Of a DNA stretch of 64,000 nt, positions 11,577-62,034 are shown one piece after another. The notes beneath the pieces were generated by a model. The model was not told where the DNA came from and made no database searches. It saw only the letters and a program-made list of their open reading frames with translations. The stretch lies in the NCBI GenBank assembly GCA_902521725.1, contig CABYTF010000005.1:118-64117 (forward strand), written 5' to 3'. Position numbers and translations under genes: made by a program. Source of the stretch: an uncultured Gammaproteobacteria bacterium. GTDB lineage: Bacteria; Pseudomonadota; Gammaproteobacteria; GCA-002705445; GCA-002716945. Each line of letters opens with the position of its first letter. Position 1 is the first letter of the stretch.

Positions 11577-12837
11577 TTCTGATCACTCCTCTACTTGAGA
11601 CAACGTACTTCAAATTTGTTAATCCCTCAAGACCCACTGGACCACGTGCGTGAATTTTATCTGTACTGATTCCAATTTCGGCGCCAAGGCCATATTCAAA
11701 TCCGTCTGCGAATCTTGTTGATGTGTTTACCATTACAGAACTTGAGTCAACTTCTCTCAAGAATCTAGATTGTGATTTTTTGTTCTTTGATATTATGGAA
11801 TCAGTGTGTCTACTTCCGTACTTTTCAATATGATCTATTGCCTCATCAATGCTATTTACAATTTTTACAGCAATGATCGGCTTTAAATATTCCTCATACC
11901 AGTCTGACTCATTTGCTAATTTTGTCTTTTTAAAAATAGCTTTTGTTTTTTTGCATCCTCTTATTTCCACATTATGCTCAGAGAGTGTTGTTAATATCTT
12001 GATGATAGAAGATTTTGGGAAATCTTTATGAATGATTAGAGATTCAGCGGCGTTACATACTCCGTACCGTTGTGTCTTTGAATTTATCGTACATTTCATA
12101 GCAACTTTGAAATCAGCATCGCTATCAATATAAACATGACAATTACCGTCTAAATGTTTAATAACAGGAATTTTTGACTCAGTTGATATTTTTTTTATCA
12201 GATTTTTCCCGCCCCTTGGAATTATTACATCAACATATTGCTCTAGCTTAAGAAGCTCACTCACAGCTGACCTATCTGTAGTGTTTATTAACTGAACCAT
12301 ATTTATAGGCATTTTGCACTCACGAAGAGATTCTTTTATTATACTGGAAAGAGCTAAATTAGAATTAATGGATTCACTACCACCTCTGAGGATAATACTA
12401 TTTCCTGATTTGATTGATAACCCAGCAGCATCGATTGTAACATTTGGCCTAGATTCGTATATCATCCCTATCACGCCTATTGGCACTCTCATTTGTTCGA
12501 CAGAAATACCACTTGGTTGAATTGTTTTGTTAATTTTTTTGAAAAGTGTATCCGGAATTGATTTTATTTTCTTAAGGCCATCAATCATGGAAGAAATTCT
12601 TTCATCGTTTATTAGTAGCCTATCTATCAGTGCATCTGACATTTTATTTTTGACAGCATTCTTTACATCAATAGAATTTCTTTTAAAGATATACTCTTTT
12701 TGACTACTGAGCTGATTGATTATACTGTTTAGTATTTTATTTCTTTGAGTATTCGATAGACTTCTAGATAGCTTAGAAGCCTCGTTAGACGCACGACAGA
12801 CACCTAAAATATATTTTTTTATTTTTTGTTTAATCAT
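11572..12837 (-). CDS. proA: Gamma-glutamyl phosphate reductase
   Basis: IYESRPNVT, LRGGSE, CNAAESL, RFADGFEYGLGAEIGIST, HARGPVGL. Confidence 0.97.
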   Translation of the reverse strand: MIKQKIKKYILGVCRASNEASKLSRSLSNTQRNKILNSIINQLSSQKEYIFKRNSIDVKNAVKNKMSDALIDRLLINDERISSMIDGLKKIKSIPDTLFKKINKTIQPSGISVEQMRVPIGVIGMIYESRPNVTIDAAGLSIKSGNSIILRGGSESINSNLALSSIIKESLRECKMPINMVQLINTTDRSAVSELLKLEQYVDVIIPRGGKNLIKKISTESKIPVIKHLDGNCHVYIDSDADFKVAMKCTINSKTQRYGVCNAAESLIIHKDFPKSSIIKILTTLSEHNVEIRGCKKTKAIFKKTKLANESDWYEEYLKPIIAVKIVNSIDEAIDHIEKYGSRHTDSIISKNKKSQSRFLREVDSSSVMVNTSTRFADGFEYGLGAEIGISTDKIHARGPVGLEGLTNLKYVVSSRGVIRN

Positions 12838-13793
12838 TTTGCATGTTTACTCATTAAATCATGGAATAAACTACTAAAGCTAACCCAGGGATTCGATCTT
12901 TTTGACATATATTTTGATTTTATATCAATGCTAGCAATATTTTTTAGTAAAAATAAGAGTTCATCTAAAGTATATTTCTTTGATGCATTTTTATATTTTG
13001 TTATTAAAAAAGAGGGAATATATGGTTTTGACGTCGTTGGCTTTACTAATGAATAGATTTTCTCAAGCTCTTGGTTGACTAAAAAAATAATGTATGACAG
13101 AGATGTGTCTATTTCTCTTAAATAACCACTTACTTTAACAAATCCTACAGCATCTTTGTTGAGAAGTGTATCAATGAGATCATATTCAGAATATTTCGAG
13201 CTCTCAATCATGGAATTCACTTTACTGCCCATTAGGCCTTTTAAATAGATCGATTGTGAAATTGAAAGAGTATTATTTAGGTTTAGATCAATCAACTCTT
13301 TGATGTAGTCTTGATTAAACTCAATATTATTAGCCTTACACTTACCAACAACCCACCGTTCTAGCACTTGACCTTTGAGTTCATATATTTCCACCACACA
13401 TGCTATGTTAGAAATATTTTTATAAAGGCTAGTTTTCTTAAATGATGCTGATTGTCTATCTAGCTTTAAGATAATTCTGTCTTCAGTATGTTGAGAAATC
13501 CATGAATCAAAAAGTTTTTTCATGTTTATAGGAATTGATTTAGATACTATGTTTATTACAAATAATTTCTTTTCCTCAAAAAGTGATTGTTCATATAAAT
13601 TACTTTTTACGTCTTCTGTTTGAGCATCATCATCTATAACGTAATTCACCGTTTTGTAACCTAATTTTCTGTAAAAACGGATTATATCCCGCTCTATTTC
13701 ATTGCTTATATTTCTTGGATTACCGTGCACCAAAAATAATGGTATTTCTGCTGTAAGTGGGAAATTCTTAAATTTAACATAATCAAGTATCAT
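12834..13793 (-). CDS. holA: DNA polymerase III delta subunit (divergent)
   Basis: LFLVHG, SLFEEKKL, LASIDIKSK-type C-terminus; size and position upstream of proA/nadD. Confidence 0.8.
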   Translation of the reverse strand: MILDYVKFKNFPLTAEIPLFLVHGNPRNISNEIERDIIRFYRKLGYKTVNYVIDDDAQTEDVKSNLYEQSLFEEKKLFVINIVSKSIPINMKKLFDSWISQHTEDRIILKLDRQSASFKKTSLYKNISNIACVVEIYELKGQVLERWVVGKCKANNIEFNQDYIKELIDLNLNNTLSISQSIYLKGLMGSKVNSMIESSKYSEYDLIDTLLNKDAVGFVKVSGYLREIDTSLSYIIFLVNQELEKIYSLVKPTTSKPYIPSFLITKYKNASKKYTLDELLFLLKNIASIDIKSKYMSKRSNPWVSFSSLFHDLMSKHAK

Positions 13794-34506: not shown

Positions 34507-34866
34507 TCATTTAGCTTTAAGTAATTTTCTAGGACCTTTACGGGTTCTACTATTATTTTTAGTTTTCTGACCACGCAGAGGCAAACCTTTTCTATGTCTA
34601 ATTCCTCTATATGAGCCTACATCCATGAGTCTTTTGATATTCATAGAATTTTCTCTTCTAAGGTCGCCCTCGAGCTGATAAGCATCTATAAATTGACGTA
34701 TGCTCTCAAGATCTTTTTCCTGTAAATCTTTTACCTTTTTTGTAGCTTCAATACCAACTTTATCGCATATATGCTTTGCTCGGGTGTCACCGATACCATA
34801 AATGGAAGTTAGAGCTATCCATATATGCTTGTTGTTAGGTAGATTTATTCCTGCTATTCTTGCCAT
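34507..34866 (-). CDS. rpsM: 30S ribosomal protein S13
   Basis: [24 protein letters not shown]. Confidence 0.98.
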
Positions 34867-60033: not shown

Positions 60034-61224
60034 TTACTCTACTATTTTCGATACGACTCCAGCTCCAACAGTCTTGCCACCTTCACGTATCGCAAATTTT
60101 AGTCCTTGTTCTAGAGCGATAGGTGTTATAAGTTCGACATTCATTTTTACATTGTCACCAGGCATGACCATTTCCACATCTTTGGGTAGTTCAATCGCAC
60201 CTGTTACGTCAGTTGTTCTGAAATAAAATTGAGGTCTGTAATTGCCAAAGAATGGTGTATGTCTTCCGCCTTCATCTTTTGATAGAACGTAAACTTCACA
60301 TTCAAATTTAGTATGAGGTTTTATTGAACCTGGAACACAAAGTACTTGTCCCCTCTCAACTTCCTCTCGTTTTGTTCCTCTGAGAAGTACGCCTACGTTA
60401 TCGCCAGCGACACCCTCGTCAAGAAGCTTTCTAAACATTTCTACGCCAGTACATGTGGTCTTTTGTGTTTCTCTTATACCAACTATTTCTATTTCTTCAC
60501 CCACATTAACTTTTCCTCTTTCTATTCTACCTGTCACAACCGTTCCACGACCTGATATAGAAAATACATCCTCAATCGGCATGAGGAATGTTTGATCAAC
60601 TGGACGCTCAGGCACAGGTATAAACTTGTCCATCTCTTCAACAAGTTTTTCAATTGACGGGATACCTATATCTGACGAATCACCTTCAATAGCTTTTAAC
60701 GCTGAACCTGAAACTATAGGCACATCGTCACCTGGAAAATCGTATTTAGAGAGAAGCTCTCTTATTTCCATCTCAACTAAATCTGTTAATTCTTTATCAT
60801 CTACTTGATCGGCTTTATTTAGATAAACTACAATGTGTGGTACTCCAACTTGACGAGCTAAAAGTATATGTTCTCTAGTTTGAGGCATCGGACCGTCTGC
60901 TGCAGAGCACACTAAAATAGCGCCATCCATTTGCGCTGCACCTGTAATCATATTTTTTACGTAGTCAGCATGACCTGGACAATCTACGTGTGCGTAGTGT
61001 CTGTCTGTTGACTCATACTCAACGTGAGCTGTCGCGATCGTAATCCCACGCTCTCTCTCTTCAGGAGCATTGTCGATCTGATCATAAGCTTTTGCTTCTC
61101 CACCAAATTTCTCACCCATCACCTTGGTGATAGCAGCAGTAAGTGTTGTTTTGCCATGATCTACGTGGCCAATCGTACCAACGTTTACATGGGCTTTATT
61201 TCTTTCAAATTTTTCCTTAGCCAT
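60034..61224 (-). CDS. tuf: Elongation factor Tu
   Basis: [18 protein letters not shown]. Confidence 0.99.
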
Positions 61225-61320
61225 TTTTTAAATCCCGAGTTAGTTAAGTTTCAAGTGGGGTAATAATAAACCACTTTTATGCGCATTTACACTAAAATTT
61301 TACTAAAATCAACGAAAAAA

Positions 61321-61393
<73 letters not shown>

Positions 61394-61401
61394 GTCGAAT
61401 A

Positions 61402-61590
61402 TAAACACCTGGATGATAGTCAAAAGAAACGATATATACAACCAAGATTGACGTAGTTCAATCATATATTTATTCAAGACGATAGCCATGAAGGGATTAC
61501 ATAGCGATCGTCTCAGTACCCTATGGAGGAGAAGCCTCTAGATACTAAGAATAGTTATGAGGATCGAATTACTGTTTTGTTAAATGTCTA
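61402..61590 (-). ncRNA. Candidate structured non-coding RNA in the tRNA-Gly/tRNA-Thr spacer
   Basis: Three adjacent hairpins plus a possible closing stem, read by eye; G-U pairs favour the minus strand; no convincing ORF. Confidence 0.5.
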
Positions 61591-61602
61591 TTTTAATGAT
61601 TG

Positions 61603-61673
61603 AGCGGGTAGCGGGAATCGAACCCGCATCGTCAGCTTGGAAGGCTGAAGTTCTACCATTGTACCATACCCGC
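61603..61673 (-). tRNA. tRNA-Gly (TCC)
   Basis: GCGGGTA...CAGC-CTTCCAA-GCTG...GGTTCGATTCC...TACCCGCT. Confidence 0.95.
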
Positions 61674-61685
61674 ATCAAATTTGTT

Positions 61686-61767
61686 TGGAGGGGGCAGGAT
61701 TCGAACCTGCGAAGGCAGGGCCAGCAGATTTACAGTCTGCCCTCGTTGACCGCTTGAGTACCCCTCC
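61686..61767 (-). tRNA. tRNA-Tyr (GTA)
   Basis: GGAGGGG...GCAGA-CTGTAAA-TCTGC, long variable arm, GGTTCGAATCC. Confidence 0.95.
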
Positions 61768-61783
61768 GAAAATCAACTTTTGT

Positions 61784-61812
61784 ATCTTAACAAAGCATTG
61801 ATCCTATAGCAT
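61784..61812 (-). promoter_or_regulatory. Putative promoter of the tRNA-tuf operon
   Basis: ATGCTA-17 nt-TAAGAT with extended TG, 16 nt upstream of tRNA-Tyr. Confidence 0.5.
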
Positions 61813-61824
61813 TAAATTTTTTAG

Positions 61825-62034
61825 TTAGTATGGTCTTTCTGGTTTTTTAATGAACCACAAATATAAAACCCAAGCAATACCTAAAGATAGTATGGTTTGA
61901 CTAGTTTTGTTAAAGTTATTTGCAAAAAATATTAGAAATAATACAACTGTTGCGAATAAAACAAAAAATGCTTCGATTCGATTTGAGGTAATTTTCATAC
62001 CAAAAATTCTTGGTGGTGGACCCAGAGGCTTCAT
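61825..62034 (-). CDS. Small hypothetical membrane protein (2 TM)
   Basis: Two hydrophobic stretches; ATGA overlap region with the upstream ORF stop. Confidence 0.65.
   Translation of the reverse strand: MKPLGPPPRIFGMKITSNRIEAFFVLFATVVLFLIFFANNFNKTSQTILSLGIAWVLYLWFIKKPERPY

Follow-up and report, generated by a model that had tools for sequence, protein, structure and literature searches.

A predicted tRNA-Thr-tuf promoter and a candidate genus-restricted small RNA motif in the tRNA-Gly-tRNA-Thr spacer of an uncultured gammaproteobacterium

The window (the whole 64,000-nt stretch of DNA that was analysed) belongs to an uncultured gammaproteobacterium with a genome assembly (G000) of 0.97 Mb, 92% complete and with a G+C content of 34%, containing 31 tRNA and tmRNA genes. 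On the minus strand, tRNA-Tyr, tRNA-Gly, a 208-nt gap, tRNA-Thr, tuf and tRNA-Trp follow one another in this order (Table 1). Mapping with ARAGORN and Rfam placed the Gly-Thr spacer at 61394–61601 and gave a Tyr-Gly gap of 12 nt, confirming both features of an initial annotation of this DNA; the median gap in the window, by a crude ORF pass, was 14 nt. The claim that the spacer was the largest gap of the window was roughly right, but a stretch of 227 nt (34575–34801) lacking an ORF of at least 60 aa in a crude pass, and with no Rfam match at gathering score, is longer.

Table 1. Features of the tRNA-Tyr to tRNA-Thr region (window positions)
Feature	Position	Strand	Basis or remarks
tRNA-Tyr	61686–61767	(−)	ARAGORN and Rfam
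tRNA-Gly(UCC), upstream neighbour of the spacer, CCA not encoded	61602–61673	(−)	ARAGORN; Rfam RF00005, 69 bits
Block I, TTAACA, −35-like	61578–61583	(−)	TT[AC]A[ACT]N in relatives
Block II, CATAAC, −10-like	61554–61559	(−)	CA[CT][AG]A[TC]; relatives CAYRAT
H1 region, with CCUCC motif at 61525–61529	61515–61546	(−)	MFE; in G000, GAGG pairs with CCUC
H2, 14-bp hairpin, loop UAAUCCCUU at 61491–61499	61476–61514	(−)	MFE; strongly covarying
Predicted −35 hexamer of tRNA-Thr-tuf, TTGTAT	61436–61441	(−)	13/13 genus sequences; also L016, L017, L032, L038
Predicted −10 hexamer of tRNA-Thr-tuf, TATCAT, 17 nt past −35	61413–61418	(−)	Conserved spacing
tRNA-Thr(GGU), heads the downstream unit with tuf	61321–61393	(−)	ARAGORN and Rfam

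Rfam 15 at gathering score detected only tRNAs in the window. When the spacer was searched on both strands at E up to 10, no family was found, in agreement with the initial annotation, which had assigned it to none; a single hit of 11.4 bits was at chance level. Orthologous loci (n = 14), searched at E up to 0.1, matched none either. A literature search located nothing on this element, by which the absence of a publication is not proven. The minimum free energy (MFE) of the spacer on the minus strand was −45.3 kcal/mol (z −2.58), and 2 of 200 shuffled sequences folded equally well; the plus strand gave a z of −1.06. The comparison with shuffles called for by the initial annotation thus came out in favour of the tRNA strand.

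BLAST of the spacer found no match in 60 relatives. Since the spacer was too diverged for BLAST, its orthologues were fetched through the flanking tRNA-Thr and tuf. The Gly-Thr gap was 166–208 nt in seven genomes of the same genus, 380–394 nt in three sister genera, where it encodes a 98-aa DUF6787 membrane protein (e.g. L010:2017–2310 (−), and likewise L011–L013 and L015), and 21–93 nt in other families of the class. A fourth sister genus has a gene for a 477-aa protein ahead of tRNA-Thr. Five more usable copies, from metagenomes, came out of a pattern scan, which also brought up two contigs with gaps of 63–64 nt (L032 and L038). The genus sequences were sorted into group A (G000 and L035), B (G002, L034, L036, L037 and G009), C (G006 and G012), D (G004, G003 and L039) and E (G010). 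Among the short Gly-Thr spacers of other gammaproteobacterial families, two of the five that were folded had a strong hairpin (L018:1939–1991 (−), −25.6 kcal/mol, z −6.5; L027:204–262 (−), an 8-bp GC-rich stem). G000 has a DUF6787 homologue elsewhere (C4:61274–61537, 47% identity), 234 nt downstream of tmRNA; in both arrangements, therefore, the DUF6787 gene adjoins a tRNA-type gene. A remnant of this gene in the genus spacers was considered and rejected: nhmmer of ORF-bearing against genus spacers gave a best score of −5.2 bits (E 8.8), and a similarity seen by eye was not significant.

The spacer falls into two parts. In its last 48 nt, the hexamers TTGTAT and TAT[CT]AT are 17 nt apart in 12 of the 13 genus sequences and 16 nt apart in G010, and the −10 hexamer ends 19 nt ahead of tRNA-Thr in the genus. 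The 17-nt spacing recurs in two sister-genus loci (L016 and L017), which keep the hexamers with a different sequence between them and have a 477-aa membrane-protein gene upstream, and in the two short-gap contigs, which retain the promoter block and nothing else of the spacer. Because hexamers and spacing are conserved and the sequence between them is free, the block was taken to be a sigma-70-type promoter. Positions 61441–61394 would accordingly comprise this promoter and a short leader, starting a separate tRNA-Thr-tuf unit; transcription probably begins at an invariant G (61406), giving a leader of 12 nt. The match to the consensus is moderate, at 8 of 12 positions (3/6 for −35 and 5/6 for −10). 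Motifs of the form TTGnnn-N16–18-TAnnnT were also present upstream of five other tRNA genes among the 31 tRNA and tmRNA genes of G000. The tRNA-Thr-tuf gap (61225–61320 (−), 95 nt) is 87–100% identical across the genus, far above the Gly-Thr spacer; it contains a conserved hairpin (AAGUGG...CCACUU) and a promoter-like TTGATT-17-TAAATG, and may be a tuf leader with a promoter of its own.

The first ~160 nt of the spacer form a module that was found in one genus only; no other part of the locus varies as much. Its promoter-like blocks I and II are separated by exactly 18 nt of variable sequence in 12 of 13 spacers and in a second copy described below; block II of the window copy is without the final T. 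A consensus promoter scan flagged neither this putative promoter nor that of tRNA-Thr-tuf, both being weak matches to the consensus. Wherever block II was found, a CCUCC motif lay 24–26 nt past it. In groups B, C and D a near-invariant CUUUUCCUCCAGAAAG folds as a hairpin of 5–7 bp with the loop CUCCA, and the relatives have a short hairpin, CUUUUC-CUCCA-GAAAAG, in place of H1. The consensus of this helix has six pairs, mostly invariant, with 94.7% of cells paired. Every variant read keeps UCC in both hairpins: the loop of the CCUCC hairpin reads CUCCA, CUUCC, UUCCU or UUCCC, and that of H2 reads AUCCCUU, GCUCCAUU, UAUCCUUU or CUCUCCCUG. A conserved small ORF, on either strand, was considered and rejected: a plus-strand ORF of 26 codons (61523–61603) shrinks to 10 codons in L035, by reading.

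H2 was the sole strongly covarying element of the spacer. In an alignment of 10 sequences, which was fitted to the model and therefore leans toward structure (12 loci were given; L009, with E 0.25, and L035, without a match, were dropped), 94.4% of cells in its 13 pairs were paired and 10 pairs had changes on both sides; the sequences (n = 14) represent about five lineages and are not independent. None of 500 shuffles reached any of the measures, and slid partners paired in at most 48% of cells vs 92.8%. Aligned with MAFFT, neither H2 nor the 5′ part as a whole agreed with the structure, and RNAalifold run on all groups together produced no consensus. The search for a conserved structure in orthologous spacers, proposed in the initial annotation, yielded one, on the tRNA strand. 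The strand preference that had been read there from G-U pairs was also borne out: across relatives H2 has 10 G-U cells vs 2 A-C cells, favouring the tRNA strand, on which H2 was the more stable in 10 of 11 sequences and the 5′ part had the more negative z-score in 11 of 13.

In 8 of 11 sequences the folding energy of H2 lay between −14 and −18 kcal/mol, and the stem is of the G+C-rich kind found in intrinsic terminators; no group had a U-tract after it, and a search of 61150–61900 gave no terminator-like site. H2 was deleted in G010 and degraded in L035 (−5.3 vs −17.9 kcal/mol) and G009 (−6.5 kcal/mol). Pairing of its loop with the tuf ribosome-binding site was tried and rejected: the GGGAU of that site does not change between groups, even in group D with its different loop, or in relatives without the module, so that loop and site do not co-vary.

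The architecture drawn in the initial annotation, a single RNA of ~200 nt, has to be revised in the light of these two parts. H2 was present in the MFE structure as drawn. H1 was also in the minus-strand MFE structure, but in the form GAGG/CCUC it exists only in group A, being weakly kept in L035, the closest relative, and is thus particular to a diverged copy. The junction closing H1 and H2 is not conserved: the consensus fold of the relatives consists of two local hairpins only, H2 and the short CCUCC hairpin, with no conserved central bubble. H3 was absent from the MFE structure, and the −35 hexamer of the predicted tRNA-Thr promoter makes up its 3′ half. Pairing of the spacer ends did appear in the MFE structure, but it draws on the promoter and leader of tRNA-Thr and is not conserved. 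As both H3 and the end pairing are built from the promoter block, neither was regarded as an RNA feature, and the 3′ 48 nt would not belong to an RNA of this element.

A covariance model trained on 10 sequences found G003, which was not one of the ten, at E 1.6e-5. Spacer identity in groups B and C was 75–78% (75.2% for G002 of group B vs G006 of group C). Between G002 and G009, both of group B, identity was 78% in the 5′ part vs 52.5% at fourfold tuf sites; between G000 and G010, its closest relative by tuf, it was 57% vs 77%. These identities show that the 5′ part is constrained in some lineages and has decayed or been replaced in others. The module was absent from L032 and L038, and H2 was deleted or decayed in others, so from this distribution the module appears dispensable and non-essential. 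A mobile or phage origin was rejected: a 16-mer had 34 matches in viral contigs, judged to be about chance level, and no module was found there (best score 17.4 bits).

A paralogue of the module was detected on another contig of the same genome (G000:C3:141766–141856; 28.2 bits) by a model trained on groups B and C only. Against the group C spacers it gave a Smith-Waterman score of 81 (maximum of shuffles, 41), with the homology starting at position ~10 and reaching the 5′ arm of H2. The locus is free of tRNA genes: the paralogue lies between psiE and a gene for a 73-aa DUF6552 protein, 34 nt ahead of the start codon. It carries both hexamers, 18 nt apart, and its H2 is a different stem that still pairs, with three double compensatory changes relative to the group C stem, by reading. 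The paralogue is the better preserved of the two copies and that of the window the more diverged. Its occurrence at another locus indicates that the module is a self-contained unit that has been copied. Since the module has promoter-like hexamers of its own and a second copy away from tRNA genes, release by tRNA processing, as suggested in the initial annotation, is not required. At E up to 1, Rfam matched no family where the paralogue lies, the element was missing upstream of DUF6552 in other genomes of the genus, and a model search gave no further copies in 37 genomes of the family, which here is the whole order. The psiE-DUF6552 interval (G000:C3:141339–141889; L065 1074–1624) is 550 nt long without an ORF of at least 50 aa, and is a mosaic missing there in relatives; G007 has a different non-coding stretch of ~370 nt upstream of DUF6552.

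A search for marine RNA runs yielded 24, of which the best contained 0.21 of the sampled words. Contigs from RNA runs (X1, X2, X3 and X5; likeness of at least 85%) left 61408–61577 uncovered and are silent on expression, ends and strand; coverage of the tRNA genes and tuf was mostly due to other organisms.

Taken together, sequence comparison suggests that the module is a real, lineage-restricted and undescribed small RNA motif, neither an RNA of 200 nt nor 6S RNA. With the anatomy, conservation, covariation and strand bias as observed, and with transcription, RNA ends and any target as predictions only, we tentatively prefer, at somewhat less than even confidence, to read the spacer as the promoter and leader of tRNA-Thr-tuf preceded by a small RNA gene, non-essential and restricted to one genus, that lies on the tRNA strand and whose product acts on targets through UCC loops. 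The RNA would be made from its own promoter (TTAACA-18-CATAAC) or as a trailer of tRNA-Tyr-Gly. It would be ~75–90 nt long and consist of two hairpins, the short one with CCUCC and the longer H2, of which the latter may protect or define the 3′ end. Through its two UCC loops the RNA could then base-pair with target RNAs, at GGA or Shine-Dalgarno-type sequences.

An account nearly as good, which we still consider a good deal less than probable, is that H2 acts purely in cis, as a non-canonical terminator, an insulator or a structure for processing and 3′-end protection that sets two co-directional units apart, without a function in trans. Both copies do lie between units of the same strand (tRNA-Tyr-Gly and tRNA-Thr-tuf; psiE and DUF6552), stable hairpins occur in two of the five Gly-Thr spacers folded from other families, and dispensability suits a modulatory role. 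However, the lack of a U-tract in every group speaks against a terminator, and no local terminator style could be defined, canonical terminators numbering 12 in 20 kb of the window vs 11.6 in shuffles. A terminator would also leave the invariant UCC loops, the near-invariant CUUUUCCUCCAGAAAG and the hexamers spaced by 18 nt unexplained. That the module is instead a non-functional relic, for example the scar of a lost or relocated DUF6787 gene with a hairpin there by chance or descent, seems unlikely. The DUF6787 ORF at this site in sister genera, its homologue downstream of tmRNA in G000, the fastest evolution of the locus in the G000 lineage and the loss or decay of the module in several lineages would all fit such a scar, but nhmmer showed no homology between ORF-bearing and genus spacers, and the compensatory changes in H2, the conservation in group B above that of synonymous sites and a paralogue that keeps the structure indicate selection.

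Read on the plus strand, the module could be a decoy of the Csr/Rsm kind, with two GGA loops titrating CsrA; this we hold to be slightly less likely again than a relic. GGA in hairpin loops is the recognition mark of CsrA. G000 encodes CsrA (83.4 bits), and covariance models of CsrB, RsmZ and RsmY (RF00018, RF00166 and RF00195) had no match in that genome; csrA (G000:C4:12586–12741) ends 44 nt before a tRNA-Ser gene (12786–12873). Two GGA loops are conserved on the plus strand, and GGA is kept in all loop variants, diverged ones included; the window copy has four GGA in 160 nt. The plus-strand loops are UGGAG and, for H2 of groups B and C, AAGGGAUGA, which matches the core of the CsrA SELEX consensus, ARGGAUG, and their distance of ~35–40 nt would suit one CsrA dimer. 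Against a decoy stand the excess of G-U over A-C cells (10 vs 2), the fold energies and the z-scores (11 of 13), all favouring the tRNA strand. The plus strand had no promoter in the scan and no convincing promoter or terminator by eye, its transcript would lie antisense to tRNA-Gly, the two conserved GGA sites compare with the usual five or more of Rsm RNAs, and neither strand matched an Rfam family. A divergent 6S RNA, of which short words had been noticed in the initial annotation, is scarcely credible. Its length would be roughly right and no other 6S RNA was detected in the genome or the family, but RF00013, whose model matched in E. coli, B. subtilis and others, found nothing in 61250–61800 or in the rest of the genome at E up to 10, nor in any of the 37 family genomes at E up to 1. 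The closing stem, which is not conserved, would be formed with the promoter and leader of tRNA-Thr, and a conserved central bubble is lacking; the element is missing in close relatives, and an ORF occupies the site in sister genera. The 6S-like words are therefore unsupported.

The tRNA-strand RNA gene that we prefer and the CsrA decoy can be carried one step further: an undescribed mini riboregulator gene, seated in a tRNA-tuf cluster and duplicated, might serve as an anti-GGA RNA competing with CsrA or as a two-site CsrA decoy, in a streamlined marine host that is apparently without Hfq, since Hfq was not found in the 92%-complete assembly. This is speculative, and we think it improbable. 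RNA regulators of uncultured bacteria with 1-Mb genomes are little known, and nearly every intergenic base in such genomes is under pressure. If true, a conserved and covarying mini-RNA with a promoter of its own, kept and even duplicated in a genome of this size, would offer one of few ways into the post-transcriptional control of abundant ocean lineages; its weight is modest, because the module is confined to one genus, appears dispensable and has no assigned function.

Parallels to known RNAs can be drawn on several sides. Spacers of E. coli tRNA operons reportedly give rise to RNAs, namely the 3′ETS of leuZ and the internal spacers of the metZWV operon. Like these, the module lies in a tRNA cluster, on the tRNA strand and directly after a tRNA, and could be released by processing; unlike them, it has promoter-like hexamers of its own and a copy at a tRNA-free locus, in a genome in which Hfq was not found. 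RNAs with C-rich loops that pair with Shine-Dalgarno regions include RsaE/RoxS and the loops of S. aureus RNAIII. The hairpin loops of the module show similar conserved C-rich words (CCUCC, UCCC and CUCC), but the module comes from a different phylum and has no homology to those RNAs, and Shine-Dalgarno-like words are rare in G000 (GGAG ahead of 55 of 810 crude ORF starts). Both the tRNA-spacer RNAs and the C-rich-loop sRNAs would thus be functional analogies only. With Csr/Rsm sRNAs the module shares, on its plus strand, two GGA hairpin loops in a genome with CsrA, but it differs in having no covariance-model match, two sites only and strand evidence pointing the opposite way.

The gene order Tyr-Gly-Thr-tuf is the same as in the enterobacterial thrU-tyrU-glyT-thrT-tufB operon. 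In Salmonella this operon is described (PMC6134099) as consisting of one promoter region, four tRNA genes and then tufB. Unlike the enterobacterial operon, the locus described here has a promoter-like block directly before tRNA-Thr and an extra element between tRNA-Gly and tRNA-Thr, and the ancient tRNA-tuf operon appears to be split here by an internal, predicted promoter.
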